From Candidatus Woesebacteria bacterium (lineage in GTDB: Bacteria > Patescibacteriota > Microgenomatia > UBA10105 > UBA927): a stretch of 64,000 nucleotides of DNA. The DNA lies in NCBI GenBank assembly GCA_018062625.1, contig JAGORV010000005.1, positions 86-64,085 of the forward strand. The letters are read 5' to 3'. The notes under the pieces were generated by a model that saw nothing but the letters and a program-made list of their open reading frames with translations, had not been told where the DNA came from and made no database searches. Positions 8,867 through 52,680 of the stretch are shown here, in pieces; within the stretch, counting starts at the first letter, position 1; every line of letters begins with the position of its first letter. A program made the position numbers and the translations under genes.

Positions 8867-8917
8867 ATAAACATTGTATCACCCTCGCAAATTGCTTCCA
8901 GCGAGTATAATATAGCT

Positions 8918-9427: not shown

Positions 9428-9455
9428 AAATCCCGAGTAAGCTACTTAGTAATTT

Positions 9456-11628: not shown

Positions 11629-11639
11629 GGGGTTCTCCT

Positions 11640-13170: not shown

Positions 13171-13229
13171 GGTCACACAGAGAAACGCCAAAAGGCGAGT
13201 GCCGATAAAGGCGAATTCTCTGTGTGACC
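13171..13229 (-). terminator. 14-bp stem enclosing two mini-hairpins, downstream of the 13255 stop
   Basis: GGTCACACAGAGAA...TTCTCTGTGTGACC with inner CGCC-AAAA-GGCG and GCC-GATAAA-GGC. On the minus strand it is followed by TGTTGTTT and a second hairpin at 13141-13157. Confidence 0.5.
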
Positions 13230-13254
13230 GTAGGTCAAGTTGAACGAAAGAAAC

Positions 13255-14157
13255 TTACTTATCTTTTTTAACCCCTTCCCATGTTACGGAAGCGCCAGCT
13301 TGTGAACCATCTTTAGCCACCGACTCACCTTTTTCAAGGTGTCGCATTTTTGTTGGTACAGACCTTGCTGGAGTACGTGTGCGAGCAGGACCTGTTCCTC
13401 TCCACCTTTCAGCAAAATCGCCAAGAGCGCCGAGCTGCATAGCCGTACCTTTGTTCCATCCTTCGAGGACGGTTGCAAGCAATTGACGGGCTTGATCGCG
13501 AGAACTGGCATCGCTGATGGCGTGACTCATGGCGACATGAGCTCCGACATAGTCAGACAACTTCAGCTGATGCGCAACACCGTTCGGATCAATGTGCACC
13601 ATCTGTGTACCGTATGCACGGACGTCTACCACGATGAACTGATCAGCTTGATTCGCATGATTTGGATCCCCAGGGATGCGCGCGACGATTAGACCATCCT
13701 TTTCACGGATGTCTGGCGCAATTTCTTCCTTCGGAATCTTCACACGATAGTGCCAATACAGCTGATATAACCCCCAAACTACAGCATACAGAATCGCGAT
13801 GACGACAACAGCCCAAAGCGCTGTGATAAACACATTGCTCCGTGCATTATCTTCATTTTGCTGGTTGGCAATCTGCTCAGGCGAAAGTGTTGGCGTAGGA
13901 ACAGGAGCATTTGCCGCAAGCATTTGTTCGTACTGCTTCTGGGCGTTTTCCAATTCCAACTTTTTTGCATCAGCAACACCCTGACAAAACTCCGCACTGC
14001 CGATGCACACATCTGCATTCACGCTGCCGGACGGTTGTGCCGTGGCTTCGAATGCAATTCCCTGAGGGGCTTGTTGAGCCGACTGGGAATTCCAATACTG
14101 ATATCCAAAAAATCCCGAAGCTAACAGGACTAATAGGATGATGATTTTCGCTTTCAT
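13255..14157 (-). CDS. bitopic membrane protein (signal/TM, second TM, cytoplasmic tail)
   Basis: 300 aa with AAAAGGAGAAG SD. The tail contains RWRGTGPARTRT and ends SVTWEGVKKDK. Confidence 0.55.
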   Translation of the reverse strand: MKAKIIILLVLLASGFFGYQYWNSQSAQQAPQGIAFEATAQPSGSVNADVCIGSAEFCQGVADAKKLELENAQKQYEQMLAANAPVPTPTLSPEQIANQQNEDNARSNVFITALWAVVVIAILYAVVWGLYQLYWHYRVKIPKEEIAPDIREKDGLIVARIPGDPNHANQADQFIVVDVRAYGTQMVHIDPNGVAHQLKLSDYVGAHVAMSHAISDASSRDQARQLLATVLEGWNKGTAMQLGALGDFAERWRGTGPARTRTPARSVPTKMRHLEKGESVAKDGSQAGASVTWEGVKKDK

Positions 14158-14172
14158 GAATTCTTCTCCTTT

Positions 14173-15036
14173 TTATCTAGTAGACGCTTTTTCGATAGCA
14201 TCTTTAATTTTTTGATGCAGAATGAAATCTAGATCTGCGACAATTTTTGCGAACTGCTCAACTGAATGAACCCCCGCTAGGTCTCGTCTGTGTGTCCTAC
14301 GAAACTCCAGAAGCGCTTCAGCCAATCCCTTGTCATGCGCTCCGAGAAGCTTAATGAAACCCATAACCGGATCGGTTGATTCCGCAGACGGTCTTGCAAG
14401 ACCCGCCCCCGATGACGCACTTGCAGTCAGTTGACGAGGCTGAGGTTGTAGCTTTTTGCGTTCTTGGGCTTGTTTCCATTTCCGATACTCATTACTAAGC
14501 ACCAGAATTATGAAAAATCCCGCTATAACAGCAAAAGCTATCACGATCACCTTTATTGCAAGATTTTGTGGTTTATTCCATGGAGTTCCACAAATCTTTT
14601 GAACAGGTACATCGTTAACGACAGTCCATATATCCATGCCCGGATACCCCCATTCACCCGAACATTCAGGTTGAAATTCCGACCGAAAAACTACTTGCCC
14701 TATCTTATTATCCACCACATAAAATCCATTAAATGGCGGTATAGGAGTAGCGGTCGCAGTTGGTGGGATCGGCGTAATCGTCGCGGTCGTTGTCGGCGTC
14801 GGTGACGGTGTAAACGTCGCTGTCGGCGTAAACGTACCGATTTTCTGTTGCACTGCCGTCAAATTATCTTCCGACTCCGCAGTTGCCAACCACGATTCGT
14901 ACGGAATGTTCGATGTTGACCCGTCAGGATTAGTGACAGTTACCGGCCCGCAACCTGCGAGTATTACAGCGGTGAGCGCCAAAAGGATCAAGGTCCAACG
15001 ACGCTTAAAACGGGTTTTTGTCGCGAAATGCCACAT
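14173..15036 (-). CDS. putative lipoprotein with a second TM helix and cytoplasmic tail
   Basis: LILLALTAVILAGC lipobox, Thr/Pro linker, TM helix IKVIVIAFAVIAGFFIILVL, and AAAGGAGG SD. Confidence 0.55.
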   Translation of the reverse strand: MWHFATKTRFKRRWTLILLALTAVILAGCGPVTVTNPDGSTSNIPYESWLATAESEDNLTAVQQKIGTFTPTATFTPSPTPTTTATITPIPPTATATPIPPFNGFYVVDNKIGQVVFRSEFQPECSGEWGYPGMDIWTVVNDVPVQKICGTPWNKPQNLAIKVIVIAFAVIAGFFIILVLSNEYRKWKQAQERKKLQPQPRQLTASASSGAGLARPSAESTDPVMGFIKLLGAHDKGLAEALLEFRRTHRRDLAGVHSVEQFAKIVADLDFILHQKIKDAIEKASTR

Positions 15037-24506: not shown

Positions 24507-24572
24507 TGTGATTGTCCACTCCACCCGCCTCGCGTCGACTACCTCTTCGCGAGTCGAGGCGGGCCACCTCAG
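24507..24572 (-). pseudogene. duplicated 5' fragment (nt 1-27) of tRNA-Tyr, split by a 40-nt GC-rich palindrome
   Basis: The minus strand reads GCTGAGGTGG[CCCGCCTCGACTCGCGAAGAGGTAGTCGACGCGAGGCGG]GTGGAGTGGACAATCACA. Anticodon and T arms are absent. Confidence 0.8.
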
Positions 24573-24686
24573 CGAGATTTCAATTATACCAAGAAATCGA
24601 AAGATCCAATAGGGCGTTAATTATTTCATAAATATTCAAATTGCCCCCTTGCAATTATGAGAAAAATATCCCTATACTACTTTCAT

Positions 24687-38842: not shown

Positions 38843-39364
38843 ATGCATCGTAATACCCTGCTCTTCGTTTCGTCACTTGCCGTGGTAGCCGCATTCTTGG
38901 TCGGAACACTTGTAGGTCGAAATTTACCTAGGTCATCCACGATAACAGTAGCTCCTGCACCTACTCCATCTATACAACTAACTCCCACACCAGTATCTCT
39001 GCGTACGTACATGGATAAAACATGTGATCTATCACTCGAATATCCAAGCACTCTGGAAATCCTCGAGAGCACAGATAGTGGCACCATCCTCACTGATCCT
39101 AACAATGATAAAGATACGGTGATAGTAGTCTGTCAAACTGATATTCCACGCGTACCACTCGCACCAAACAAGATCACAACAGTGATACTCCAAGCAGCAA
39201 AAGGTGCCACGGTTTCTGCGAAAATTTACCATGACGCGTCTGCAAAGGATGGCGCACCTATTGATAAGCTCATCTTTACGCATCCCACAAGCGGCATGGA
39301 TGTGTTAATCGGCGGATTTGGCGCGATGTATGATCGCCTCATAACCTCAGTAAAGATCAACTAA
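38843..39364 (+). CDS. membrane-anchored hypothetical protein
   Basis: 173 aa with an N-terminal TM helix LLFVSSLAVVAAFLVGTLVG. Confidence 0.5.
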   Translation: MHRNTLLFVSSLAVVAAFLVGTLVGRNLPRSSTITVAPAPTPSIQLTPTPVSLRTYMDKTCDLSLEYPSTLEILESTDSGTILTDPNNDKDTVIVVCQTDIPRVPLAPNKITTVILQAAKGATVSAKIYHDASAKDGAPIDKLIFTHPTSGMDVLIGGFGAMYDRLITSVKIN

Positions 39365-39449
39365 CTTCGAGTAATTTCTCCATATCTAGTCAATCTTGGA
39401 TATCATTGCGTTTCCTTTTGATACCAAAACTTGATAAAATAGATCCATT

Positions 39450-39520
39450 AGGCTCGTAGTTAAACGGTATAACAGAGGTCTCCAAAACCTCTATTAGGGG
39501 TTCGATTCCCTTCGAGCCTG
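39450..39520 (+). tRNA. tRNA-Trp (anticodon CCA)
   Basis: Acceptor AGGCTCG/CGAGCCT, anticodon loop CTCCAAA, T-arm AGGGG-TTCGATT-CCCTT. Confidence 0.9.
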
Positions 39521-39601
39521 CAATATAAATCGAACCCGCCGGAATGAGCGAAGGCGAACGAGGCGCGGTCGCTGGTCTTGCCAGCAGGCAAGAACCGAGA
39601 C

Positions 39602-39619
39602 TCGATTCCCTTCGAGCCT
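39602..39619 (+). repeat. 18-bp perfect direct repeat of the tRNA-Trp 3' end
   Basis: TCGATTCCCTTCGAGCCT occurs at 39502-39519 and again at 39602-39619. The intervening 82 bp are GC-rich and include the CTTGCC-AGCA-GGCAAG hairpin. Confidence 0.9.
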
Positions 39620-39674
39620 ACAAGCGGAACTCTAACTTATTGTTGTCATAGAAGCCATGTGAGATACTTAATAT

Positions 39675-40538
39675 ATGGAACCTATAACTCCACAAAATTC
39701 ATCGCCTCAAATTAGCACTGAACCGCTAGCTAGTAGTTCTAAAAATACAAAATTTTTAACTTATTTAGTAATAGGTTTATTAGTATTGTTACCCATTGTA
39801 GGGATTGGCGGTTACTATATTGGTGCACAGGCCGTGCGTAACTCAACAAATACCGATCTAAACCCTACTCCAACAGCTGATCCAAATAATCAAGTAGCAT
39901 GTACAATGGATGCCAAATTATGTCCTGATGGTAGTTCTGTAGGAAGAACTGGTCCAAACTGTGAATTTGATTCTTGCCCCAATCAAAATACTCAACAAAA
40001 TTTACAAACTATCACAAATGTAAAAGGTGGATACACTTTAAAGATTCCATCTACATGGAAAGTAACGACAAAAAATGAAGATGACAGTCTTTTGCGAGGT
40101 CAAGATTATGTAGTGAACTTAACGTTATCGTCTGAAAAAGGTGAACCAGATGGTCAAATGCAATTCGTAAATGCCATAACTATCCCTTTCCCCTACACCA
40201 TCAAAGGTCCTCATTATGATATGGGCAAAAAATTTGAAAATGGGCTTGAGGGCTTAGTTGTAAATAATCCCAATCCAGTGAATGCTAAAAGCATTACATC
40301 AAAATATCTCACAGTAAATACCATGAAAGCGCTTACTGTTACCACGGTAATGGTAGATAAAAACAGTGATTTATCTGAAGGCTTCGCTGGGGAGTATTTA
40401 TTCGGTTCAACAACAAAAGTCGTGTATATAGATATGGGAAATGGAAAAATTTTAGAAATAAGTGGAACGTGGACACAAGACTACCCTCAATTTGAGACAG
40501 TTTTTGATCAAATTATCCAAACCCTTGCGGTAAAATAA
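39675..40538 (+). CDS. membrane-anchored secreted hypothetical protein
   Basis: TM helix, then the Cys motif CTMDAKLCPDGSSVGRTGPNCEFDSCP. GATACT box 6 nt before the ATG. Confidence 0.55.
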   Translation: MEPITPQNSSPQISTEPLASSSKNTKFLTYLVIGLLVLLPIVGIGGYYIGAQAVRNSTNTDLNPTPTADPNNQVACTMDAKLCPDGSSVGRTGPNCEFDSCPNQNTQQNLQTITNVKGGYTLKIPSTWKVTTKNEDDSLLRGQDYVVNLTLSSEKGEPDGQMQFVNAITIPFPYTIKGPHYDMGKKFENGLEGLVVNNPNPVNAKSITSKYLTVNTMKALTVTTVMVDKNSDLSEGFAGEYLFGSTTKVVYIDMGNGKILEISGTWTQDYPQFETVFDQIIQTLAVK

Positions 40539-40570
40539 GTTTTCGCTTTGTTTACTAGCGCCTGCATAGA

Positions 40571-40828
40571 ATGCTTACCATTATATTATTTTCAATTATC
40601 GGATTTGCTATTGCATTCATTTGGGAATTCTTTTGCACTCACGTTATAAGAAAAACATCTTTAATACTATTGGGATACAGATTACATCACAGTATATTTG
40701 GACTGCTTATTATCGCACTTGGATTATCTATCCAAAACATTCCACTGACCGGAATAGGAGTCGGCATTCTCATTCAACACACAGTAACTGACGGATTTCG
40801 ATTTATATCCAAAGAATCCAAACACTAA
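40571..40828 (+). CDS. small three-TM membrane protein
   Basis: 85 aa, hydrophobic. Confidence 0.4.
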   Translation: MLTIILFSIIGFAIAFIWEFFCTHVIRKTSLILLGYRLHHSIFGLLIIALGLSIQNIPLTGIGVGILIQHTVTDGFRFISKESKH

Positions 40829-40852
40829 ACTCACTCACATCATGCATGGCGC

Positions 40853-41083
40853 ATGATTTATAAATACGCTAGACTGTTAGTGAGTATGAAAAAGATAAAA
40901 AAACGTTCCACTATGCACGTCATGCTTGTCGCTAGTGCAGTGATATTTTTTTGGCGGGGTGCATGGGGACTTATGGATCTCTACATATTTCCTGATCATG
41001 AACTATTTAGCTATATCACATCCGTCGTATTTGCGATCGTTATTTTACTCGCTACACGCAGACTAGATGACGAGCTAATCTAA
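40853..41083 (+). CDS. small two-TM membrane protein
   Basis: 76 aa. An alternative start at 40886 (MKKIKKRS) is plausible. Confidence 0.4.
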   Translation: MIYKYARLLVSMKKIKKRSTMHVMLVASAVIFFWRGAWGLMDLYIFPDHELFSYITSVVFAIVILLATRRLDDELI

Positions 41084-41108
41084 AACACTTCATACAACAA
41101 TCCAAAGT

Positions 41109-42794
41109 ATGGTTCACACACACAGCCTCTTGGAACGAATTCGCATATATTTTCTCGCGCACTTTGCATCCTTTTGGAAACACAGTCTTGGTATTTGCCT
41201 GATACTCATCATTCCTTTTATAGAGGTTTTATCACTCTATATTCCTGTAGCCGGTAAAATTGGCACAGTTACGTGGATACTTTTGTGGATTTACATCGCG
41301 GCATTTACGTTGGTGCAAGGAATAAATCTTGTTAAAACTTCAATACATCAGCGATCGCCATTTGCACTACTCACTATTGGGTTATTTCTTTTTTTATGTG
41401 CGACAAACATACAGAGTATTTATAGTATAAATGGGGAAAATACCCAAGAGATCGCATGCGCTTTAACCCAACTTCAACAGAGTTCTGACTGGGGATACAG
41501 ACAATCATGTTTATTTGGCTATCCCACACGACAATTTATCGTGCCTGCCATTCCTAGCCTGCTCTTCGGCAATTCTTTGGCTGCGCTCAATATCGGAGGA
41601 GCAATATACTTTATCCTAGGACTCATACTTTTTTGCCGAGGAATCCAAGTGTATGTCCAAGACAGCAGAAAGGGCGACGCACTGACTCTGCTCATCTTCG
41701 GATCCCTGCTTCATTTTCACTATATAAATCATTTCCTCTTTCTATTTGAACAAAGTATATTTCCATTGAGCTTTGCACTGGCGGGATGTGGTATTTGGCT
41801 TATGTACCTCCGTACAAAATTGCACACCTATCTGATCCCACTTACTCTACTGCTCTTCGTTATTGTTTTCTCATATACACCAAGCTTAGTCCTGCTTCCA
41901 TTATCGTATGGAGCTATCCTGTGGCAATCGAGAAGAAATCAAACACAATGGTTCAAAATACTTGGATTAGTCATTGTGGTACTAACCGCAATAATGATCT
42001 TAAGCTCTTTTATGTTTCGATCAGACATAAAATTAGGACATCAATATCCTGGGGGTATTCCATCTGCATTGGGGGAAATAGGTCTCGCCATAAAACATCT
42101 TGCTATGCATATATACCCTACGCCATTTACCACGTGGGCTATGACGCCTATATATATCATCCTACTGCTTGCTCCTTTACTTGGACTATTTGGTCGTGTT
42201 CCACAACTCATAGCACTTTGGTGTTTTGGTGTATTTTGTATCTCTATCTATGCCAAAGGATTCTCCTACTATCACATAGAATTTCGTATGCATCGAAGCA
42301 TGGTAATGCTTCCTGTATTACTGACACTTTGGATACATCTGTTTAATAAATACCGCTCATACATACCACTTGCTTTCATTATATTTGCGGCATTTGGCAT
42401 AACCATAAGCGGACTCCAAAATTATAAAACAACACAGCTAGCCCGCCCAATCAGCCAACAATATAAATTTTTACGGTGGTACGCGTCACAAAAAATCTCA
42501 CAAGACACCACCCTCTATTTGCTGAGTGCACAGACACCAAAAAACAATTTCATTTCCATGCGCGATATTTCACAATATTTTATCCCCCACCTTGCTATAA
42601 ACAATAGCTACAAACTCCCCGCTAATTGCTCTGTGAATGATATAGAAGGAATATTTTTGCTACAAGAAACAGATCGCTGTAGCAATACCCTCCGCCAGAT
42701 GCTGACACAAGATGAAACACTTGCATTTATTGCAACCTACGATGGAGTCGCTTCCGAACCACTTTTAGTATTTTCTCGTAAATCAGAGCTCTAG
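41109..42794 (+). CDS. large polytopic membrane protein, possibly a GT-C-type glycosyltransferase
   Basis: 561 aa, more than 10 TM helices and a soluble C-terminal ~130 aa. No diagnostic motif seen. Confidence 0.35.
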   Translation: MVHTHSLLERIRIYFLAHFASFWKHSLGICLILIIPFIEVLSLYIPVAGKIGTVTWILLWIYIAAFTLVQGINLVKTSIHQRSPFALLTIGLFLFLCATNIQSIYSINGENTQEIACALTQLQQSSDWGYRQSCLFGYPTRQFIVPAIPSLLFGNSLAALNIGGAIYFILGLILFCRGIQVYVQDSRKGDALTLLIFGSLLHFHYINHFLFLFEQSIFPLSFALAGCGIWLMYLRTKLHTYLIPLTLLLFVIVFSYTPSLVLLPLSYGAILWQSRRNQTQWFKILGLVIVVLTAIMILSSFMFRSDIKLGHQYPGGIPSALGEIGLAIKHLAMHIYPTPFTTWAMTPIYIILLLAPLLGLFGRVPQLIALWCFGVFCISIYAKGFSYYHIEFRMHRSMVMLPVLLTLWIHLFNKYRSYIPLAFIIFAAFGITISGLQNYKTTQLARPISQQYKFLRWYASQKISQDTTLYLLSAQTPKNNFISMRDISQYFIPHLAINNSYKLPANCSVNDIEGIFLLQETDRCSNTLRQMLTQDETLAFIATYDGVASEPLLVFSRKSEL

Positions 42795-42832
42795 TAATTT
42801 TACCGTTGATCATATAAAATTTTTCTCAATAT

Positions 42833-43450
42833 ATGAAACGCATAGATCTCACACATAGCTTCATTCCAGAAATGCCAGCATATCCCGGTGATCCCAAGGC
42901 CACACTCACACAAGCCGCAAACATAGATACAGATGGCTACACAGACCATCAGCTCCACACCCTCATGCATGTAGGTACGCATATGGATGCGCCACTACAC
43001 ATGATAAAAGATGGTGCATATATGGATGAAATTTCGTTAGACACATTTTTTGGTACCGGAATCCTGATCGATGCTCGAGGAAAACAAATCATAGATGCAT
43101 CTATACTCGCTGGGTTAACGATAGAACCAAACACGATCGTATTGGTCTACACAGGTTTTGGTGATCTATATCATACCCCACAATACTTTGAAAATTATCC
43201 TCAAATAGATGAGTCTTTTGCCAAACGCATGGTAGAGTTGAAAGTAAAAATTGTCGGTATGGATATAGTTGGCCCAGACCAGCCTCCATTCCCCACCCAT
43301 AAACAACTTCTAGGCCACGGTATATTGATTATAGAAAATCTCGCTAATCTGGACGCATTACTTGATGTGAAGAATTTTGAAGTACTCGCCCTACCAGCTA
43401 AGCTTCATACAGACGCAACCCCAGTTCGTGTCATCGCAACAATTTTATAA
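42833..43450 (+). CDS. cyclase-family protein (kynurenine-formamidase-like)
   Basis: HVGTHMDAPLHM matches the HxGTHxDxPxH motif. Confidence 0.8.
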   Translation: MKRIDLTHSFIPEMPAYPGDPKATLTQAANIDTDGYTDHQLHTLMHVGTHMDAPLHMIKDGAYMDEISLDTFFGTGILIDARGKQIIDASILAGLTIEPNTIVLVYTGFGDLYHTPQYFENYPQIDESFAKRMVELKVKIVGMDIVGPDQPPFPTHKQLLGHGILIIENLANLDALLDVKNFEVLALPAKLHTDATPVRVIATIL

Positions 43451-43470
43451 ATATTTGGTATACTGCTCCT

Positions 43471-43662
43471 ATGGCAAAGAAACTCAAACTACCCAAATCA
43501 CTCACCACAGTTACGCCATTTTCAAAAACACTTGCGCTTTCCATGTTCATCATATTCCCAATCGTCGCCTTTCTATTGGGGCGTATATATGAAAAAGAAA
43601 TCACACCCGTAGGATTTTGCGCCCCTTCGGAAAATACACTTCGAATAGATCGCTCAAAATAA
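43471..43662 (+). CDS. small membrane protein (63 aa)
   Basis: TATACT box 6 nt before the ATG. One TM helix. Confidence 0.4.
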   Translation: MAKKLKLPKSLTTVTPFSKTLALSMFIIFPIVAFLLGRIYEKEITPVGFCAPSENTLRIDRSK

Positions 43663-43672
43663 ACCAATACTC

Positions 43673-44083
43673 ATGAACACTATAGTCAAGGATTCGCATA
43701 TACATGGTCTCGGAGTTTTTGCGACAAGCGATATACCCGCAGGCACCCGCATATTTGAATACACAGGAGAACTCATCACACGCGAGGAAGAAGATAGACG
43801 TGAGATAGAAAACGATAAAACAGGCGTCACCTATATATATCAACTCAACGACCACGAAAGCATAGATGGAGCGCACGGTGGAAATGACTCACGATATGTG
43901 AACCATTCGTGTGAGCCAAACGTAGAGGGAATCATAGAAAATAGACACATATACTATGTAGCAAAACGCGATATCAGAAAAGATGAGGAGTTGTTTATCG
44001 ACTACGCATTCGATAAAGATTCAAAAGCCGAACCATGCCATTGTGGATCAGTCAATTGCCGTGGTGTCATGAATGCTGTATAA
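43673..44083 (+). CDS. SET-domain protein (putative lysine methyltransferase)
   Basis: RYVNHSCEPN, ELFIDY and the post-SET motif CHCGSVNCRG. Confidence 0.9.
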   Translation: MNTIVKDSHIHGLGVFATSDIPAGTRIFEYTGELITREEEDRREIENDKTGVTYIYQLNDHESIDGAHGGNDSRYVNHSCEPNVEGIIENRHIYYVAKRDIRKDEELFIDYAFDKDSKAEPCHCGSVNCRGVMNAV

Positions 44084-44091
44084 CGATTTGT

Positions 44092-44649
44092 ATGAAAATT
44101 ATATTTGCTCACGGCTATACTGCTAACACAACCACTGATTGGTACCCGCAAATTACCGCGGAACTTCGTAGGCTTAAAATAGCATATGCTATCCCCAACC
44201 TTCCCGGAGAAGAACATCCACATAGCGCAGAATGGATTGAATTGCTTCATGCGGAAATCGAAAAGGCAAAAGAACCTCCTATATTGGTCGGACATAGCCT
44301 AGGCACTCGAGCGGCTCTTTTGACGCTCGAAAAATATCCTACAAAACTTAAAGCGCTCATTCTCGTTGCCACGTTTGCCAACAAATTAGAAAATGCCAAG
44401 CGAAGAGATGAAGCATACGCTGATTTTTTTGATCATCTCATCGATTTGGAAAAAATAAAGGAAACTACCCCTACACGAGTAATCCTACACTCTATGGATG
44501 ATGACTCTATCCCATATCGACAAGGACAAGAAATGACGAGAGATCTCGGCGCACACCTACTGACCTACAATGGTAAAGGGCACTTTGATCAACCGGAAAA
44601 TTATATTTATATTCTCGATGTGATCAAAAACATCTTGAATATTAAGTAA
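44092..44649 (+). CDS. alpha/beta hydrolase (YdeN/RBBP9-like serine hydrolase)
   Basis: Start at ATG 44092 (MKIIFAHGY). GHSLG nucleophile elbow. Confidence 0.7.
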   Translation: MKIIFAHGYTANTTTDWYPQITAELRRLKIAYAIPNLPGEEHPHSAEWIELLHAEIEKAKEPPILVGHSLGTRAALLTLEKYPTKLKALILVATFANKLENAKRRDEAYADFFDHLIDLEKIKETTPTRVILHSMDDDSIPYRQGQEMTRDLGAHLLTYNGKGHFDQPENYIYILDVIKNILNIK

Positions 44650-44669
44650 TATCACGGTATATTTGACGT

Positions 44670-45047
44670 ATGTTTCATAAAGTATCCACTATCCTTATTT
44701 GGTCTGAAGATTTCCGAAAGCTCTCAGATTGGTACCTTCACACATTTCAGTTAAAGGTTGTCGAAGAACTTGATCATCCACAAGACACAGGGGTACTTAT
44801 GGAATTTCCCGATGGTGGCCCATGGATATGGGTAGGACAACATTCTGAAATTCATGGAAAAAGTCGAGATCCACTCCGCGTCATGTTTAATATAACGGTA
44901 GACTCTGTAGAGGAAACGTATGAATATCTTGTAAAAAATGGCGCCCCAGTCATCGCTAAACCATTTAAAGCTCCTACATTTGATAAATGGTTTGCGACAT
45001 TTTCTGATCCTGATGGTAACACGATACAGATCATCGGTCCTAAATAA
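44670..45047 (+). CDS. VOC/glyoxalase-family protein
   Basis: 125 aa, with the DPDGNTIQIIG C-terminal motif. Confidence 0.7.
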   Translation: MFHKVSTILIWSEDFRKLSDWYLHTFQLKVVEELDHPQDTGVLMEFPDGGPWIWVGQHSEIHGKSRDPLRVMFNITVDSVEETYEYLVKNGAPVIAKPFKAPTFDKWFATFSDPDGNTIQIIGPK

Positions 45048-45075
45048 TTACCACATTCAATGATATACTGTGTTC

Positions 45076-45408
45076 ATGAATAAACCCCCTATCAAATCAC
45101 CGTTTGGTAAATACATAACGCTTTTGGAAAAAGTGGATAAAGATGTGAAAAATCAAGATGAGTTTGGATCATTTCTGATCCTTTCTCTCGTAGAAGAAAT
45201 CGGCGAAATGGCGAGAGCATATCTAGCCAAACACGGTCGAAAACCTACTAATCTCGCAGCACAACGAGATGAAACATACGAACAAGAACTCGGAGATATC
45301 ATTGTCGCAGTTTTGCGATTTGCCCGTATCAAAAATATAGACCTACATAAGCGCGTGCTATACACGATACACAAAATTGAAAAGCGACAAACCGCACCTA
45401 AAGAATAA
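45076..45408 (+). CDS. MazG-like nucleotide pyrophosphohydrolase
   Basis: EEIGEMARAY and ELGDIIVAVLRFA motifs. Start at ATG 45076, 6 nt after TGATATACT. Confidence 0.7.
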   Translation: MNKPPIKSPFGKYITLLEKVDKDVKNQDEFGSFLILSLVEEIGEMARAYLAKHGRKPTNLAAQRDETYEQELGDIIVAVLRFARIKNIDLHKRVLYTIHKIEKRQTAPKE

Positions 45409-45421
45409 TATATTTTCGTAT

Positions 45422-45937
45422 ATGACTACCATCTCTCATGTAGCAGTGGGCGTAATCATCACTCGATATTTTATTGAGCATGGTATCCTTCCCAATGTTG
45501 GCATCGCCCCGTATGTTCTTGGAGTAACATTTGCAAATATACCCGATATTGATGGATTGATTTCCATGCGACGCATTTACGATCACCATAACACGCTAAA
45601 AAACATGACACACTATCCTGCAAATTGGCTCTTTGTGATCTGCTTTACGGCTATCTTAGGATTATTTACTCACATTCCACATTTTTATAACTATCTAGCC
45701 CTCGTGAGTATAAATGTGCTACTGCATTTTGTACTCGATACATTTTCTATATACGGAGGCATAGCATGGCTTGGACCTTGGAATAAGAAAAAATATAGCT
45801 TTATCAAAATTCTTCCGTATGTACCGAGCAACACACATGAATGGGTACACTGGTATATGAAGCACTGGATACTCTATATGGAAATTGCACTCTGGATTAT
45901 CGCAGCGCTCATCATCGCGCATCAATTTATCCAGTAG
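45422..45937 (+). CDS. membrane-bound metal-dependent hydrolase-like protein (YdjM/DUF457-like)
   Basis: Start at ATG 45422 (MTTISHVAVG). His/Asp-bearing TM helices. Confidence 0.45.
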   Translation: MTTISHVAVGVIITRYFIEHGILPNVGIAPYVLGVTFANIPDIDGLISMRRIYDHHNTLKNMTHYPANWLFVICFTAILGLFTHIPHFYNYLALVSINVLLHFVLDTFSIYGGIAWLGPWNKKKYSFIKILPYVPSNTHEWVHWYMKHWILYMEIALWIIAALIIAHQFIQ

Positions 45938-45950
45938 TCCTATCGAGGAA

Positions 45951-46457
45951 TTATTTCTTTCTCCCACTACCCCAGCGTTTCCAATTGGGATTCATGTGTC
46001 CAAGCTGGACAATATCATCTGCAATGTCAAAAAGATAATGACTCACCATGGCGCCGAGCAACACCACACCCACTTCCCAATCTATAAATGATGAAGCCGC
46101 CGCACAAATCATGAGAATTCCGACAACGTAAATGTTGTGATAAGACAAACTTGTATTGTATTTATGCCCTGTGGCGACAAAGTGAAACAAATTACGCCAC
46201 TCATGATGGGATATATAGGACATCACTTGTTTGGTATAACTATCATTCCTGCCGTAGCCCAAAAAATATCGTATATGTTCCACGTCTGGCAACACTGATC
46301 CAATTACCGCTGTCCACACCCACTTCTGATTAAACTCTCCCCATCGTTCACGCAAAAACCACGCCCAAAGCAACCCAAGCATCACATGATAGGCCATGTG
46401 TCTCGATTGCCACAATATATAGCCCAATCCTCGAATACGTGCGATAGATCGTCGCAT
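45951..46457 (-). CDS. His-rich membrane protein, possibly YdjM-like
   Basis: 168 aa, 4-5 TM helices, many His. Weak call. Confidence 0.3.
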   Translation of the reverse strand: MRRSIARIRGLGYILWQSRHMAYHVMLGLLWAWFLRERWGEFNQKWVWTAVIGSVLPDVEHIRYFLGYGRNDSYTKQVMSYISHHEWRNLFHFVATGHKYNTSLSYHNIYVVGILMICAAASSFIDWEVGVVLLGAMVSHYLFDIADDIVQLGHMNPNWKRWGSGRKK

Positions 46458-46531
46458 AAATAACTCCTACTCCCAGTATACCCAAAATAAATGCTTTGAC
46501 AAATAAATAAAAACTGTGCATAGTATTTATA

Positions 46532-47272
46532 ATGTCAGTAGCCCATAAATCCACGTATATCCCTTCTATATTAGGACTTATCGCTCTATTTGGAGTAGCT
46601 ATGGCATTTATTGCCTTACCTCTGCGAGAACTTACTCAGAACAATCAGTCGCTTGCAGATCCTATAAGTCTACAGATGCTTATAGAAGGTAAATCACTCC
46701 CGCAGCCACAGGAGCAGTCCGAGGCAATGTTTCACAAACAATTTGCCATACCACCAGCGCTGGCAAGTCTTCAGCAAAAACGGGGTGTTTTGGGAGTCAC
46801 AACTGGTGCTGTAGAAGCAGAAAAACGCATTGAGGTAGATCTCTCTCATCAAAAAGTTTACGCATTTGAGGGTAACACAAAGGTATATGAATTTATTATT
46901 TCTAGTGGCAAATGGGGTCGCACACCCACCGGTGAGTTTCGCATATGGACAAAGGTAAAAAGTCAGCTTATGAAAGGTGGAGATCCAAATCTAGGCACCT
47001 ACTACTATTTACCAAATGTTCCATGGGTCATGTTTTTTTATAATGACCAGATCGCCAAAATGCGTGGCTTTAGCTTTCACGGCACGTATTGGCACGACAA
47101 CTTTGGGTATCCTATGAGTCATGGATGCGTAAATATGAGAAGTAGCGAAGCCAAACTGCTCTACGATTGGGCGTCACCAAGCGTGACAAACGAATCAGCA
47201 TGGTCCACATCTGCCTCAGCAGAGAATCCTGGAACACGCGTAATCATCTACGGCGAAGCTCCTACGGAATAA
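46532..47272 (+). CDS. L,D-transpeptidase (YkuD domain)
   Basis: FHGTYWHDNFGYPMSHGCVNM catalytic motif and an N-terminal TM helix. Confidence 0.9.
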   Translation: MSVAHKSTYIPSILGLIALFGVAMAFIALPLRELTQNNQSLADPISLQMLIEGKSLPQPQEQSEAMFHKQFAIPPALASLQQKRGVLGVTTGAVEAEKRIEVDLSHQKVYAFEGNTKVYEFIISSGKWGRTPTGEFRIWTKVKSQLMKGGDPNLGTYYYLPNVPWVMFFYNDQIAKMRGFSFHGTYWHDNFGYPMSHGCVNMRSSEAKLLYDWASPSVTNESAWSTSASAENPGTRVIIYGEAPTE

Positions 47273-47303
47273 ACGATATAGACGTTTAGAAAGATTGTGA
47301 TCC

Positions 47304-48182
47304 TTACAAATTGAGGCTCTTGAGGTATTCTCGAAACTCACCATTGAGGTCTTTGTGTAACAGTGCGAACTCCACAACAGTTTTGAGGTATTCTAGCTTG
47401 TTGCCCGTGTCATAATACCTGCCATCTTTGATCTCACACGCATATACAGGGCGTGTCTTCATAAGCTCTCGGATAGCATCAGTAAGCCACACTTCGCCAC
47501 TTTTCCCAGGTCCAAGTTTCTCTAATATAGGAAAAATATCTGGGGTCAGCACGTAACATCCGTGAGCTGCGAGATTACTTGGCGCTTCTTCTTTCTTGGG
47601 CTTTTCTATGAGGTTTTTGATCTGATATACAGAATCCTCTACCTTAGTCGCTTCGACAATTCCGTAACGCGATACGTCATCTTTTGCCACTTGGATGGCA
47701 GATATAACAGGATCACCATACTTGTTAAACACATCGATACACTGTTTGGCGCGTGGTGGATTAGAGTAAATAAACTCATCTCCCCATATGGCGACAAACG
47801 GCTCGTCTCCAATCACGTTTTTCGCACACAACACCGGAGTGCCATTTCCGTACGGACCTTTTTGACGAATATAGATAAAGTTAGCAAGTTCCGCTGTACG
47901 CTTCACCTCTGCCATAAGTTCATGTTTACCTTGCTCTTTGAGCGTCTGGATGAGTTCGTTGGGATAATCGAAATGATCCTCAATCGATCGTTTGTGCCAC
48001 CCCGTTACTATCACAATATCGGTGATGCCACTGGCGACCAACTCTTCTACCACATACTGAATAACCGGTTTATCAACGATAGGAAGCATCTCTTTTGGCA
48101 TGGCTTTGGTCTGTGGTAAAAACCGTGTGCCAAAACCGGCTGCGGGGATAACTGCTTTACGAATTTTTTGCTGTGTTTTCAT
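47304..48182 (-). CDS. galU: UTP--glucose-1-phosphate uridylyltransferase
   Basis: KAVIPAAGFGTRFLPQTKAMPKEMLPIVDKPVIQY. Confidence 0.95.
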   Translation of the reverse strand: MKTQQKIRKAVIPAAGFGTRFLPQTKAMPKEMLPIVDKPVIQYVVEELVASGITDIVIVTGWHKRSIEDHFDYPNELIQTLKEQGKHELMAEVKRTAELANFIYIRQKGPYGNGTPVLCAKNVIGDEPFVAIWGDEFIYSNPPRAKQCIDVFNKYGDPVISAIQVAKDDVSRYGIVEATKVEDSVYQIKNLIEKPKKEEAPSNLAAHGCYVLTPDIFPILEKLGPGKSGEVWLTDAIRELMKTRPVYACEIKDGRYYDTGNKLEYLKTVVEFALLHKDLNGEFREYLKSLNL

Positions 48183-48278
48183 GTTTGTCTATTTGCTGTT
48201 AGGGCAAAAGAACGAACCAACTTTGTAATTGTACAGTTCGTGAATTTCATTTGTCAATTTGGTAAGATAAGAACACTC

Positions 48279-50180
48279 ATGAAACGAACCGCCACATTCT
48301 TCATAACCTTGTTATTATTACTCGTGGGATTTCTCTGGACGCCCCAAGTGGTACGTGCAGAAGACACAATTTTTACCACTACCCGCTTGAGTGAGTGGCA
48401 AACAAAAGCAGTGATCATATTAAACGAATTTGGATTTGATGTCGCTGGACTTATAAAACCATCTTTTGAAAGCGAAAAAGAAAACGCAATCGTAGACTAT
48501 GAGCCATTTAAAATTTACATGGATGCCTATACCCAATGGAATATGCCCGGTCAATACCTACAAGACAATAGAATTATTTTTTGGCAAGGACCTATCAAAA
48601 GATATTCTCTCTACGGCATTATTCTGAAAGCATGGTCAGAACACGGTGAAAATAACACGTCTCCCGAGTGTTACATTTCGGTAGGACCACAAGTATCCGA
48701 ACCAATCCCCAACTTGCCAGAGCTTACCACGAGTGGAGAATTGATTGGGAGTATGCGTGGATTACTACCAAAAGAGACAAACGATGCTGGTGTCATAGAC
48801 ACCACAAAACCTACTAATCTTGGTATAGGAGGCATGAATGCTGGTGAGGATTGCAAAAAACAAACATCCGGAGTCGAATGGAAACCGTTTGCCAATCCAC
48901 AACAACGGCTTTCATCATTTGCTGGTGGCTCTAGTGTACTTGCACACATGTTAGAAACCATCATGGTCATCGTCGAGCGAATTGTTCGCCTTGCGGGTGG
49001 TGGCACACAAGTTGAACTCCATGAAGAACCACTAAAAGAAGTTACCAATCGCATGGGTATACTTACTAAAAAAACGAAACAATGGTACCAACAAATACTC
49101 TGTCAATTTGGATCAACTCCATGCCCAAGTAATCAAGTTGGCGACTACTCAAAAAATCTCGATGTTACCGGTGGTTGGCCTGCAGGATTTATCGGTGCAA
49201 ATGAACAAAAAAAGGTCAATCCTCATCTAGAGCTAGAGGATCAAATAGAAGTGGTAAACCTAAGAGCAGGAAAGATGCGAGAACCAGAAGCTGTAGCAAA
49301 TCAACTCCTCACCGGCCTTGCCGAAGCCAGTTGCACCGTCGTACCTGCTGGAAAATTGCAAGCTGAAGCTGTGATGGGAAAAGCCGGTGCTAAAAATGCC
49401 ATCAAAATAAAACCATGGTGCAGAGATGAAATAGAAGAAACGGGCAAATGCCCAATAGATCTGATCGAAAAAGGGCTCGCTAAATCTAGCATGTCATGTA
49501 ATTTAAAAAACCCTGGTGCATATGCATCATCAAACACCTATCTCACGAGCCTTGAAAAACAAGCACTGCCTAACGGTGTGTCTCCCCTCATGCAAAAAGT
49601 TCTAGAAGCAGCTGGTGCTACATATAATGTCCCTGCATCAGTATTACTGGGCACCATGCTCGAAGAAGGGTCATTTAATCACGCGGACGTATGGAGCTGG
49701 ACCGATGAAAACGTACGATTATTTAGCGACTGCACAACTATGGACCCAATGCCAAGCTGTCGTGAATTTGGCGATGCGACCTCAGAAGGAGCTACTGGAC
49801 CGTTCGGATTTATCGCAAATTGGTGGCAAAACTATATCGAATCAGATGGTCCATACAAAGCATATCTGACCGATCCCAGCTGGAAAGATGCCCTAGCTAC
49901 CGCAAAACCAAACTATAGTGAATGCAACTTTGTAGATGCGGCATTTACCGCAGCAAGAGAACTTGGGGAAGATGCTAGCCATTATCAACCAGATTACGTA
50001 CCACCAGCGCCACAAACTTGTACAATCGATGGAGCCACATACAACACAAACATCTCATTCATACCGGCCTCATGTAGTAGCTGGACCGCAGATACAGTAG
50101 CTCTCGCACGTATGCAATATGGAGATCGTACATGTAGCGCAGATGTGGGTCGCATGATACGCACATATAAAGGTATCTAA
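48279..50180 (+). CDS. large secreted protein with a possible C-terminal lysozyme-like (SLT-like) domain
   Basis: Start at ATG 48279 (signal peptide MKRTATFFITLLLLLVGFLW). LLGTMLEEGSFNH...GATGPFGFI resembles the ES...GAxGLMQ pattern. Confidence 0.45.
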   Translation: MKRTATFFITLLLLLVGFLWTPQVVRAEDTIFTTTRLSEWQTKAVIILNEFGFDVAGLIKPSFESEKENAIVDYEPFKIYMDAYTQWNMPGQYLQDNRIIFWQGPIKRYSLYGIILKAWSEHGENNTSPECYISVGPQVSEPIPNLPELTTSGELIGSMRGLLPKETNDAGVIDTTKPTNLGIGGMNAGEDCKKQTSGVEWKPFANPQQRLSSFAGGSSVLAHMLETIMVIVERIVRLAGGGTQVELHEEPLKEVTNRMGILTKKTKQWYQQILCQFGSTPCPSNQVGDYSKNLDVTGGWPAGFIGANEQKKVNPHLELEDQIEVVNLRAGKMREPEAVANQLLTGLAEASCTVVPAGKLQAEAVMGKAGAKNAIKIKPWCRDEIEETGKCPIDLIEKGLAKSSMSCNLKNPGAYASSNTYLTSLEKQALPNGVSPLMQKVLEAAGATYNVPASVLLGTMLEEGSFNHADVWSWTDENVRLFSDCTTMDPMPSCREFGDATSEGATGPFGFIANWWQNYIESDGPYKAYLTDPSWKDALATAKPNYSECNFVDAAFTAARELGEDASHYQPDYVPPAPQTCTIDGATYNTNISFIPASCSSWTADTVALARMQYGDRTCSADVGRMIRTYKGI

Positions 50181-50242
50181 CAACATTGAGCTATACCCCA
50201 CTCTTTACACAGTATGAGGATTTTGGTATTATAAAGATTGTC

Positions 50243-50265
50243 GTCCCCGGGGAGGGGGCTTTTGT
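50243..50265 (+). terminator. intrinsic terminator candidate
   Basis: TCCCC-GGGGA-GGGGG followed by CTTTTGTT. Confidence 0.45.
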
Positions 50266-50277
50266 TAGGTAAACATC

Positions 50278-50490
50278 ATGGATAAGCCAAGCGTTAATCT
50301 GCCAAAGTCTGCGCCAACTAAATTTTTTAGTGAAGTAGCAGCAGAACTTCGCAAAGTCACTTGGCCGACACGTGCAGAAACGACCAAACTGACCATAGCA
50401 GTGATCGTAATTTCACTAGCAGTTGGACTGTTTGTAGGGGGACTTGATATACTATTTTTGAACATAACATCATCACTTTTTAGAAAATAA
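50278..50490 (+). CDS. secE: preprotein translocase subunit SecE
   Basis: FFSEVAAELRKVTWPTRAET followed by a single TM helix. Directly upstream of nusG. Confidence 0.9.
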   Translation: MDKPSVNLPKSAPTKFFSEVAAELRKVTWPTRAETTKLTIAVIVISLAVGLFVGGLDILFLNITSSLFRK

Positions 50491-50492
50491 AT

Positions 50493-51095
50493 ATGATAGA
50501 CGAACCAGTAAAGTCAACAGAAGCAGTGGCTCCAATCGATCCGATAGTCGATAAACCAGTCATAGATTCCAGTGCCGGCCGATGGTATGTGGTACACACC
50601 TACTCTGGTCACGAGAATAAAGTCGCAGCAAACCTCAGACAACGCGTAGAAACTCAAAAACTCACACTCAAAATCTTTGACATCGTCGTCCCTACTCGTA
50701 ATGTAGTGAAAGTTTCTCATGGCAAAAAAGAGGAAATAAAAGAAAAGATTTTCCCAGGATACATCTTGGTAAAAATGATTCTTGCAGACGATAGCTGGTT
50801 GGCTGTACGGACCACACAAGGCGTTACCGCATTCGTAGGAGCAGGAAACAAACCAACCCCTATCTCTGATCGTGAAGTTGAAGCTATTCGTAAATTTATG
50901 GCTATGGAAGCACCTAAATACAAAGCTTCCTTCTCTGTGTCTGAGGCAGTGAAAATCGTGGACGGGCCGTTTGCAGACTTCCTTGGTACAATCGACTCTA
51001 TCGACGAAGAAAAAGGCAAAGTCAAAGTACTCGTCTCTATCTTTGGTCGTGAAACACCAGTCGAACTCGACTTCCTACAGATCGCAAAGCTTTAA
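50493..51095 (+). CDS. nusG: transcription antitermination factor NusG
   Basis: WYVVHTYSGHENKV NGN domain and the KOW motif VKIVDGPFADFLGTI. Confidence 0.95.
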   Translation: MIDEPVKSTEAVAPIDPIVDKPVIDSSAGRWYVVHTYSGHENKVAANLRQRVETQKLTLKIFDIVVPTRNVVKVSHGKKEEIKEKIFPGYILVKMILADDSWLAVRTTQGVTAFVGAGNKPTPISDREVEAIRKFMAMEAPKYKASFSVSEAVKIVDGPFADFLGTIDSIDEEKGKVKVLVSIFGRETPVELDFLQIAKL

Positions 51096-51392: not shown

Positions 51393-52583
51393 TTATTGGT
51401 TTGACTTATAGAAGACGTAGCCACCAAATCCGACTGCGGCGATAACCATAATAAGGATGATCGTACCGAATCCAAATCCACCGCCACCCACAGAAGTAAA
51501 CTGTTTGGTGACTTGCCCCTGTGCACCATCTTTGGTCGCAACGACAAGCACACTTTTTGGTCCGGGCGTAAGCTTTTTGGTAGGTCTAAATGACCATTTA
51601 CCATTCTTATCTGCAAATACTTCTGCTCCTATCCCGTCGGGATATATGGTTACTGTGATTTTCGCATCCGGTTCACTGGTTCCTGAAATCGTGGGTTGCA
51701 GATTGGTTTGAGACTTTCCATCGGTAAATCCTCCTACGGTAAGCGCGAGCAATCTCCCACCTCCTGAGACTCCTGGGCCACTGGTGGGGGTGGCAAATAT
51801 AAACGATCCGCCATTGCTATCCTCGCAGAGACATCCCGGTTTTTCTGGGCACAACTTATTCCGACACGCATGGAGCGTGCCAAAAACTGTGGTGCATCCC
51901 AAATTCAGCTGACAGTCATTATCTGTGGTACAAGATTTTCCACACACATCGATAAGTGAAGGAGTTTTGGTGGGGGTAGGCGTAATCGTAGGTCTCACGG
52001 TCGATGTTGGACGAGGTACAGATGTTGGCCTCGGTGTCGATGTTGGCCTCGGTGTCGATGTAGGACGTGGTGTACCTGTGGCACTCGGGTATGGAGTGTA
52101 GGTAGGATATGGTGTATAGGTAGGAATAGGAGTGTTTGTAGTCGCTGGTCTCGTCGTCGCTGTCGGAGCTGTAGATGGAGCCACACATGGTCCTTCATAC
52201 ACATTCCCAGCACACGCGGTCATCGTAGTCGTCCATCTCTGCCCCATCCCCGGACAGCAATACTGTTGGCCACCGCATAATCCTACTCGACCCGCAGTAT
52301 TACACAGCTGTTGATCACCATCAGGCTCTGCAGGACAGTTCGTGACATTACGTATATCGTACGCACCACTGACTAAACACTGATTACAATTATCTAGCTG
52401 ACATCCTGCTGCTTTTTGTCGCAACTCTGTGGGCTGTACTGCAGCAAGTACCGATAATACGATACCAATTCCCACGACTAGAAGGAATATTATTGTACGC
52501 AAATCAAATCCTTTTCTTCGAGAAGAAGAAAATGCAACGGATTTCTTGCTGGATTTACGTGCCAATGATTTCTTTGCTTTCAT
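51393..52583 (-). CDS. Cys-rich, Pro/Thr-repeat surface protein with N- and C-terminal TM helices and an Ig-like module
   Basis: Start at ATG 52583 (MKAKKSLARK). Two Cys clusters, a TPRPTS repeat, and a C-terminal anchor IILIMVIAAVGFGGYVF. Confidence 0.6.
   Translation of the reverse strand: MKAKKSLARKSSKKSVAFSSSRRKGFDLRTIIFLLVVGIGIVLSVLAAVQPTELRQKAAGCQLDNCNQCLVSGAYDIRNVTNCPAEPDGDQQLCNTAGRVGLCGGQQYCCPGMGQRWTTTMTACAGNVYEGPCVAPSTAPTATTRPATTNTPIPTYTPYPTYTPYPSATGTPRPTSTPRPTSTPRPTSVPRPTSTVRPTITPTPTKTPSLIDVCGKSCTTDNDCQLNLGCTTVFGTLHACRNKLCPEKPGCLCEDSNGGSFIFATPTSGPGVSGGGRLLALTVGGFTDGKSQTNLQPTISGTSEPDAKITVTIYPDGIGAEVFADKNGKWSFRPTKKLTPGPKSVLVVATKDGAQGQVTKQFTSVGGGGFGFGTIILIMVIAAVGFGGYVFYKSNQ
51995..52090. 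repeat. roughly five tandem 18-bp units inside a CDS
   Basis: gtgtcgatgttggcctcg repeated (two perfect copies plus degenerate ones). Encodes (T/S)PRPTS. Confidence 0.8.
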
Positions 52584-52680
52584 AACGATAGATATGATCT
52601 CACAGTACTGTATATCATCATGCCGAATTTTTCGACCCAAATCAAGAGGCAGGCAGAACTAAATCGAAAAATATACCCCG

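Follow-up and report, generated by a model that had tools for sequence, protein, structure and literature searches.

A repeated tRNA-Trp 3′ end in a Woesebacteria genome: a hairpin element, incongruent tRNA alleles and a probable tRNA-gene replacement

The tRNA-Trp gene, its repeated end and the hairpin behind it

The DNA analysed here is a 64,000-nucleotide stretch of a Candidatus Woesebacteria contig (JAGORV010000005.1), referred to throughout as the window, and its subject is an 18-nt repeat at the 3′ end of the gene for tRNA-Trp. This gene is preceded by rpmG and the gene for a 173-aa protein, and is followed by the second copy of the repeat, a 287-aa open reading frame (ORF) and a run of genes extending from one for an 85-aa protein to one for a 633-aa secreted protein, so that rpmG and tRNA-Trp are split from secE-nusG by 10.7 kb, as Pfam and ARAGORN bear out. 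An initial annotation had seen in the repeat an attachment-site (att)-like structure and in the intervening block either a degenerate genomic island or a serial insertion hotspot. For comparison we used related loci, numbered L001-L025, from Candidate Phyla Radiation (CPR) bacteria whose records are labelled Woesebacteria or Gottesmanbacteria; these were gathered through exact-protein look-ups of homologues of the 633-aa protein, a scan of a genome collection with the 173-aa protein, and further look-ups.

The tRNA-Trp(CCA) gene occupies 39450..39521 on the plus strand (ARAGORN; Rfam tRNA, 64.9 bits, to 39520), has no encoded CCA, and represents an allele that we refer to as W-type. The final 18 nt of the gene, TCGATTCCCTTCGAGCCT, which extend from the T-loop to where the acceptor stem ends, occur exactly twice in the 64 kb, at 39502..39519 within the gene (copy 1) and at 39602..39619 (copy 2), both on the plus strand and exactly 100 bp apart; two matches were obtained in none of 100 shuffles, and a scan of the 64 kb allowing up to three mismatches found no further copy, including at the distal end of the block near 50.2 kb. 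The identity between the copies reaches 21–22 nt with one mismatch, a G versus an A, at the discriminator position, and the 82-nt spacer between them has a high GC content (0.64 over 39529-39601; 0.43 in the window as a whole). The spacing, the GC-rich spacer and the lack of a third copy near 50.2 kb had all been described correctly in the initial annotation. The layout of the window is found unchanged in three further, independent assemblies from its population (L021-L023), and is thus not an assembly artefact. Immediately upstream, at 39427..39449 (plus strand), is a promoter-like region, TTGATAAAAT, predicted to be of the extended -10 type, in which cTTGATAAAATag is conserved; this motif is kept in L001, L009 and L024, and in L004 and L011 it overlaps the stop codon of a GIY-YIG gene.

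Alignment of the DNA downstream of tRNA-Trp across the relatives reveals that the GC-rich spacer and the second repeat copy belong to one conserved element of ~100 nt, a GC-rich hairpin (type 1) at 39524..39623 on the plus strand. At its 5′ edge (39528..39537, plus strand) lies AATCGAACCC, which repeats the tRNA T-arm in inverted orientation (it is the reverse complement of GGGTTCGATT), and the same motif follows tRNA-Trp in L010, L009 and L019. The element is carried by the window and L024, by L010 and L015, and by L009, which holds an additional tandem copy and a truncated copy, while L012 has a variant with the same 3′ module; it is absent from L001 and L008, the closest relatives, and also from L004, L011, L013, L016 and L025. 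The window and L010 copies are ~87% identical, although the neighbouring proteins are ~50–57% identical and other intergenic DNA is unalignable.

The three type-1 copies adopt a common rod (RNAalifold) in which AGGC pairs with GCCT, the copy of the acceptor end, and GGAGG pairs with CCTCC, the copy of the T-stem; the rod continues with a 5-bp helix (helix 4) and is closed by an invariant terminal hairpin, GGTCTTGCC-AGCA-GGCAAGAACC (39574..39596, plus strand), which is the same in the window, L010 and L009 and whose core is common to the type-2 variant. Copy 2 is thus the 3′ strand of the basal helices, with its partner (AGGC...GAGG) at ~39551-39565. The 5-bp helix shows two independent compensatory changes, from G-C to A-U in L009 and from C-G to U-A in the window, and the L012 copy, which has diverged from the tRNA (GATCCGGCA), retains the basal helix via two further compensatory pairs. 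Across only five distinct sequences, whose alignment was itself fitted to the model, pairing is seen in 94.7% of cells versus 25–45% with slid partners, and six pairs are changed on both sides, a covariation reached by 0 of 500 shuffles; invariant G-U pairs point to the plus strand. The covariance model was built from the window, L010 and L009 copies and scores 111–127 bits on these by construction, 109 bits on the L024 copy and 26 bits on the L012 variant. Because this conserved fold with its compensatory changes includes copy 2, the second repeat copy appears from comparative sequence analysis to be one strand of a hairpin under structural selection. The att-like description therefore stands as regards form, but not as the end of an island. 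We regard the hairpin as a candidate new tRNA-linked structured element with covariation support, which may act as a tRNA-trailer RNA mimicking an acceptor/T minihelix, or as a folded DNA site.

Several other identities for the element were considered. Apart from the tRNA itself, Rfam 15 yields no match for the window locus or for L009 at the gathering threshold or at E≤10 beyond chance-level ones (sR38, mir-2329, rli42); ARAGORN is negative for a hidden second tRNA or transfer-messenger RNA in the spacer, and a tRNA-Ser-like reading made by hand on the minus strand has a 6-nt loop and lacks a 3′ T-stem and an acceptor. It is not an intrinsic terminator, having no T run after 39619, and a terminator scan finds none on the plus strand. 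As for a dispersed mobile element, a 24-nt degenerate core pattern matches no viral contigs and a single metagenome contig, that of the species of L010; the type-2 5′ module was not found away from tRNA-Trp, nor in viral contigs, and the covariance model detects no additional copies in 329 kb of DNA from the window and its relatives. We also note that L009 (11532-11572) and L010 (2940-2980) have a long perfect hairpin between tRNA-Trp and the GC-rich element, conserved between the two with a compensatory G-C to A-T change and lost from the window, and that L012 has a terminator-like hairpin with a T run in that place (11535-11570).

Incongruent tRNA alleles and tRNA stubs in the clade

The window, L001, L008 and L024 represent four lineages of one subclade that are ~80% identical in the DNA upstream of tRNA-Trp. 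The tRNA gene itself has a different distribution: the W-type gene of the window is 68/71 identical to that of the distant L010 and 50/71 to that of the close relative L001, and it is the whole tRNA-Trp, 5′ half included, that differs between close relatives. In L001 this other allele, which we refer to as L-type, has the 85-aa gene within 4 nt, with neither the hairpin nor the 287-aa ORF between them, and the outgroup L016 carries the L-type allele as well. L008 contains both (8084-8215), with an intact W-type tRNA-Trp followed by 17 nt, the 3′ 39 nt of an L-type gene from the anticodon loop onward, and then the 85-aa gene. In the window the W-type tRNA, the hairpin and the 287-aa ORF all precede the 85-aa gene, and there is a weak remnant (...GCGCCTGCA) at the expected position of the L-type 3′ end. 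This possible third, degenerate remnant of a tRNA 3′ end, CTAGCGCCTGCA (40555..40566, plus strand), lies just before the 85-aa gene, and its position relative to the start codon is that of the tRNA-Trp 3′ end in L001 and L008; as a third repeat copy bounding the 287-aa ORF it is a positional argument only, the local alignments being not above shuffled background. L008 also has a 294-aa minus-strand ORF upstream of tRNA-Trp that has no Pfam match and is absent from the window.

A comparison with L024 suggests a sharp boundary just before the tRNA. L024 is ~80% identical to the window over 1.4 kb upstream (~65–90% across the GDSL, L33 and 173-aa genes), but 99–100% identical from 39427, which is 23 nt 5′ of the tRNA, up to the point within the 287-aa ORF where its contig ends. 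The last differences are at 39425-39426, and the left break point of the near-identical segment thus falls in the promoter-like region. This break reflects either a recent exchange or a chimeric scaffold.

The 287-aa ORF (39675..40538, plus strand) is predicted to encode a secreted or membrane-anchored protein with a Cys-rich motif and is the putative cargo gene of the segment. It has no homologue in the syntenic relatives by tblastn, and its sole full-length homologue, which is 58% identical, is in an unrelated context in another genome and is again directly 3′ of a tRNA-Trp gene, behind which a GAGAATCGAACC motif is found; its GC content at third codon positions (0.25) is the lowest in the region. 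The ~1.1 kb comprising tRNA-Trp, the ~100-nt element and the 287-aa ORF behaves as foreign DNA. We note separately that hundreds of small secreted CPR proteins that are not otherwise related contain the Cys-rich motif, CTMDAKLCPDGSSVGRTGPNCEFDSCP, at 60–90% identity, and that Hint, Kazal-like or other domains occur in some of them.

Partial tRNA genes beside intact ones recur in the clade. In both L004 (2187-2589) and L011 (10571-10952) a tRNA-Trp 5′ stub is split by a GC-rich palindrome of 22–24 nt and followed immediately by an 82-aa GIY-YIG ORF (Pfam E ~1e-13) and then by an intact tRNA-Trp. L014 (2890-3290) has the same arrangement at another gene, with a 13-nt tRNA-Thr(GGU) 5′ stub split by a 47-nt palindrome, a GIY-YIG ORF (identified by tblastn match and sequence) and an intact tRNA-Thr. 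The locus in L025 (2110-2370) is the complete picture of an overwritten tRNA: two 5′ stubs of one tRNA-Tyr allele, one of them followed by a short hairpin, precede an intact tRNA-Tyr that represents another allele (acceptor CTAGGAT), and the 3′ remnant of the old allele lies downstream.

The window itself has two such loci, in which a stub lies beside its intact target gene, the 3′ one at tRNA-Trp (39602-39619) and a 5′ one at tRNA-Tyr (~24507-24573). A copy of the 5′-most 27 nt of tRNA-Tyr (24462-24375, minus strand) lies 71 nt upstream, immediately after a TATAAT box. This stub is interrupted after GCTGAGGTGG by a GC-rich palindrome of 40 nt, CCCGCCTCGACTCGCGAAGAGGTAGTCGACGCGAGGCGGG, which belongs to the same family as the palindrome in the L014 tRNA-Thr stub, the two having CCCGCCTCGACTCGC...GTCGACGCGAGGCGGG in common. 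It is the one clear palindrome of this kind in the 64 kb, in addition to the loosely similar 5′ part of the Trp element, whose resemblance to the stub palindromes (~60%; CCCGCC...GCGAAG...GAGGCG) is suggestive of homology only. The 44-nt spacer at tRNA-Tyr contains ATGTATTTTGT, which is identical to the start of the L014 GIY-YIG ORF, although this 11-nt match may be mere promoter-like AT-rich sequence and is not taken as a GIY-YIG remnant.

The conserved gene neighbourhood and other variable sites

The left anchor of the 10.7-kb block is rpmG (ribosomal protein L33; 38657..38830, plus strand; Pfam Ribosomal_L33, E 1.2e-19), whose product is 75–100% identical in all relatives and encoded at the same position. 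It is followed by the gene for the 173-aa protein (38843..39364, plus strand), a lineage-specific, membrane-anchored protein with no Pfam match and 420 homologues at E≤1e-10; every related locus has one, always between rpmG and tRNA-Trp. The right anchor is secE-nusG (50278..51095, plus strand), with secE at 50278-50490 and nusG at 50493-51095 (Pfam SecE and NusG/KOW), again at the same position in relatives. Between them, 40571..50180 is a conserved lineage-specific neighbourhood, as seen from Pfam and from synteny with L001-L018 and L025 (tblastn of the window genes against the related loci, plus called genes). It comprises genes for the 85-aa protein, a Fuseless-like protein of 76 aa, a 561-aa membrane protein, a cyclase, a SET protein, a hydrolase, and VOC and MazG proteins, and then two YdjM genes, YkuD, galU and the 633-aa secreted protein. 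Pfam matches support the cyclase, SET, hydrolase (alpha/beta-hydrolase), VOC, MazG, L,D-transpeptidase (YkuD) and galU labels given earlier, and add the two YdjM genes; the label 'GT-C-like' for the 561-aa membrane protein is unsupported.

About 15 relatives have the same order of GDSL lipase, L33, ~170-aa protein, tRNA-Trp, block and secE-nusG. Between tRNA-Trp and secE there is a variable stretch, and then a core of (Fuseless, SET, VOC) MazG, YdjM, YkuD, galU on the minus strand and a ~630-aa protein; nusG is followed by at least one inserted gene and then by rplK-rplA-rplJ-rplL. All relatives with DNA over both ends carry the block (L001, L004/5, L008-L013, L016 and L025), and those that cover the secE side only have it too (L006/7, L017, L018 and a JGI contig, the last without DNA). 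The 633-aa protein is 89% identical to its counterpart in L001, 51% in L016, 45% in L004/5 and 34% in L006/7, and the gene order persists where the 173-aa protein is as little as 46% identical and the 633-aa protein 23%. The interval between tRNA-Trp and secE is shortest in L013 (~5.5 kb) and longest in the window (10.7 kb), and core genes are missing in a few relatives, MazG from L004/L005 and YkuD from L006/L007. In none of the relatives examined does tRNA-Trp adjoin secE; shared block content in relatives, or a lack of this linkage in the lineage, had been named in the initial annotation as grounds for rejecting the island.

Neither the composition nor the gene content of the block is unusual. 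Its GC content is 0.413 versus 0.435 outside, its tetranucleotide distance is inside the range of the window, and the core holds housekeeping-type genes (galU, YkuD and MazG). In agreement with the initial annotation, a Pfam scan of all block ORFs reveals no integrase or recombinase, and the precomputed Pfam families of the genes called in the related loci do not include an integrase. With the same block in relatives, an ordinary composition and no integrase, the island interpretation fails, and the 10.7-kb block is an old, vertically inherited neighbourhood with some internal gene turnover. The alternative proposal of a serial insertion hotspot holds in part, in that the tRNA-proximal end has small insertions and replacements and ~1.1 kb looks foreign, but it does not hold for the whole 10.7 kb.

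Other sites in and around these loci are also variable. In L016, a minus-strand PaaX_M-like gene (2570-3316) is inserted between the ~170-aa gene and tRNA-Trp, flanked by near-identical direct repeats of ~33 nt (tgactaa...gcgaccgcacaaagttagtca); PaaX_M-like genes are found at other variable spots too, such as after nusG in L006, and this gene may be another small mobile cassette. Between nusG and rplK the window has a minus-strand gene (51393-52640) for a 415-aa protein with weak bacterial Ig-like matches, and relatives have one or more genes there (Big_13-like, MFS, PaaX_M-like); from these inserted genes the nusG-rplK junction is a second variable slot. Elsewhere in the window, positions 7500-15000 have the highest GC content (0.48–0.50) and deviate most from the window average in tetranucleotide distance (0.22–0.25 versus 0.12–0.18 elsewhere), and include a 27-nt tandem duplicate (11287-11340); this region has a stronger claim to atypical composition than the 10.7-kb block.

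Explanations for the repeat and their relation to known systems

We favor the explanation that the 18-nt repeat is the scar of a tRNA-gene replacement rather than the edge of a 10.7-kb island, and assign to it a probability of about 0.6. An incoming segment with a complete tRNA-Trp would have landed on the resident tRNA-Trp, anchored at conserved promoter or tRNA sequence, and left tRNA stubs behind. In the window the incoming unit would be the ~1.1 kb with the W-type tRNA-Trp, the ~100-nt hairpin and the 287-aa cargo ORF, and the W-type gene would have replaced the L-type gene that is still directly before the 85-aa gene in the closest relatives. The hairpin would have arrived with the tRNA from an L010-like lineage, with selection acting on its fold either in an RNA that trails the tRNA or in single-stranded DNA. 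Because overwriting in the relatives is linked to free-standing GIY-YIG genes and GC-rich palindromes, we infer that the engine may be homing-type double-strand-break repair, or gene conversion, with co-conversion of the neighbouring DNA.

There are precedents for parts of this scheme. SegB of phage T4 is a free-standing GIY-YIG homing endonuclease encoded in a tRNA gene cluster, with a recognition site that includes a T-psi-C stem-loop motif, and its cleavage of the endonuclease-free allele leads to co-conversion of neighbouring tRNA genes and drives inheritance of the tRNA region (PMC2330249). The GIY-YIG ORFs of the 82-aa class directly upstream of the intact tRNA in L004, L011 and L014 are similar in placement, and the duplicated tract of the window begins in the T-loop; unlike the SegB system, the setting is the chromosome of a CPR cell, the old tRNA persists as stubs together with GC palindromes, and the window's tRNA-Trp has no endonuclease gene. 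In fungal mitochondria, mobile ORFs bring with them a duplicated 3′ gene end, which preserves an intact host gene, and leave the native end downstream as a stub, as in Allomyces atp6 and the Glomus atp6, atp9, cox2 and nad3 hybrids, where the two copies differ in phylogenetic origin (PMC3630166). The layout in L008, a W-type tRNA followed by an L-type 3′ half, is an exact counterpart, but the hosts here are tRNAs with stubs at both 5′ and 3′ sides, and the window has 82 nt and no ORF between two copies that are of the same allele.

Likenesses outside the homing systems are looser. A direct repeat from the T-loop to the 3′ end, right after an intact tRNA, is as in islands and prophages that use a T-loop tyrosine integrase, although here 100 bp separate the copies, an integrase is lacking, the tRNA 5′ half is replaced between relatives as well and the distal copy belongs to a hairpin under structural selection. 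Mobile GC-rich palindromes are known from AT-rich genomes, including the GC clusters of yeast mitochondria, double-hairpin elements and bacterial elements resembling repetitive extragenic palindromes (REP). The 22–47 nt palindromes of the stubs are likewise GC-rich in a genome of lower GC content and are related at different loci and in different species, but they are seen only inside tRNA stubs, their apparent target duplications are inconsistent (~2, 4 and 6 nt) and the known copies are too few for a dispersed family. The 3′ external transcribed spacer of leuZ in Escherichia coli is a tRNA-trailer-derived small-RNA sponge; the window element is similarly a conserved structured sequence directly 3′ of a tRNA that could be released by tRNA processing, yet the two have no sequence or structural relation, and the window element copies the 3′ end of its own tRNA.

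A number of observations weigh against replacement as the source of the repeat. The sharp break in identity comes from a single 1,967-nt metagenomic scaffold (L024) that is possibly chimeric at the conserved tRNA, and the putative remnant at 40555-40566 is statistically not significant. There is no GIY-YIG gene in the 64 kb by tblastn with the relatives' proteins, and the window's tRNA-Trp locus and its surroundings lack any endonuclease or recombinase gene. The hairpin occurs only after tRNA-Trp and in few genomes, and since the scans for it elsewhere are near-empty it does not look like an actively dispersing element; the window copy, moreover, fits the consensus rod less cleanly than the L010 copy. 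Finally, the compensatory changes and the 87% identity between distant species equally fit a vertically inherited functional RNA.

This last alternative is the strongest of the competing explanations, although we consider it appreciably less probable than tRNA-gene replacement. The ~100-nt element would be a 3′ trailer co-transcribed with tRNA-Trp, with basal helices mimicking the stacked acceptor and T stems of the tRNA, and could serve in 3′-end processing (RNase Z, CCA addition), as a processing mark that separates the tRNA from the mRNA behind it, or as a stable trailer-derived small RNA; selection, or gene conversion with the tRNA, would maintain the 18-nt identity, and the element would have been lost wherever it is now missing. 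It is always on the same strand and directly 3′ of tRNA-Trp, it has compensatory changes and invariant G-U pairs (which would be C-A mismatches on the other strand), the T-stem letters of the copy track the tRNA of each genome (CCCTC in L010 and L009, but CCCTT in the window), the element in L009 has behind it a hairpin and T run resembling an intrinsic terminator, and divergence roughly follows species distance, with 7 differences between L010 and L009 and ~13 between the window and L010. Against this, the distribution is patchy, the element being absent from L001 and L008, the closest relatives, and from the other loci named earlier as lacking it; L009 has tandem and truncated copies, the hairpin with a T run in L012 separates the tRNA from the element, the downstream genes differ in every genome, and there is no Rfam family match.

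It is unlikely that the repeats are attL and attR of a tyrosine-integrase element inserted at the tRNA-Trp T-loop and since reduced to a miniature non-autonomous remnant, with the 287-aa ORF as cargo of a second insertion spanning from copy 2 to 40555-40566 and the locus as a serial hotspot at a scale of 0.1–1 kb. Identity from the T-loop to the tRNA 3′ end is what a T-loop att site classically looks like, only some of the relatives carry the segment, tandem copies occur in L009, and in L019 the 287-aa homologue adjoins tRNA-Trp and is then followed by a weak ...CCCTGCA remnant. No integrase is found among the block ORFs by Pfam or among the called genes of the related loci, however, and the proposed third copies do not reach significance. 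An integrase changes the 3′ part of a tRNA only, yet here the 5′ half is also replaced, and compensatory changes that keep a hairpin intact would not be expected in double-stranded att sites; this explanation is less likely for both reasons. It is very improbable that the whole 10.7 kb represents a degenerate genomic island or was built up by recent serial insertions, for although rpmG and tRNA-Trp are parted from secE-nusG, the gene content of the block varies (extra methyltransferase, NicO, MFS and cupin genes in relatives) and identity to L001 is 61–81% near the tRNA versus 87–99% near secE, the core of MazG, YdjM, YkuD, galU and the 633-aa protein has the same order and orientation in most relatives examined, and a distal repeat, an integrase and any departure from ordinary composition are lacking.

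Returning to tRNA-gene replacement, a more speculative extension, which we think rather doubtful, is that the clade harbours an undescribed selfish system that overwrites chromosomal tRNA genes, in which a cassette of GIY-YIG gene, GC palindrome and replacement tRNA would home into its target and leave stubs, with the hairpin as a new structured RNA or folded single-stranded DNA site in this traffic. The hairpin could then serve, for instance, for landing or processing, with individual cargo genes like the 287-aa ORF being captured behind it.

The supposed 10.7-kb island is thus ordinary conserved synteny and should not count as horizontal transfer. Essential tRNA genes in these reduced genomes, in turn, appear to be swapped between species with stubs left behind, and in relatives the swapping accompanies tiny GIY-YIG genes and GC-rich palindromes. 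Homing-type gene replacement is so far known from phage T4 tRNA clusters and fungal mitochondria, and such swapping would extend it to the chromosomal tRNA genes of uncultivated bacteria, and would account for the odd partial tRNA matches in CPR assemblies.

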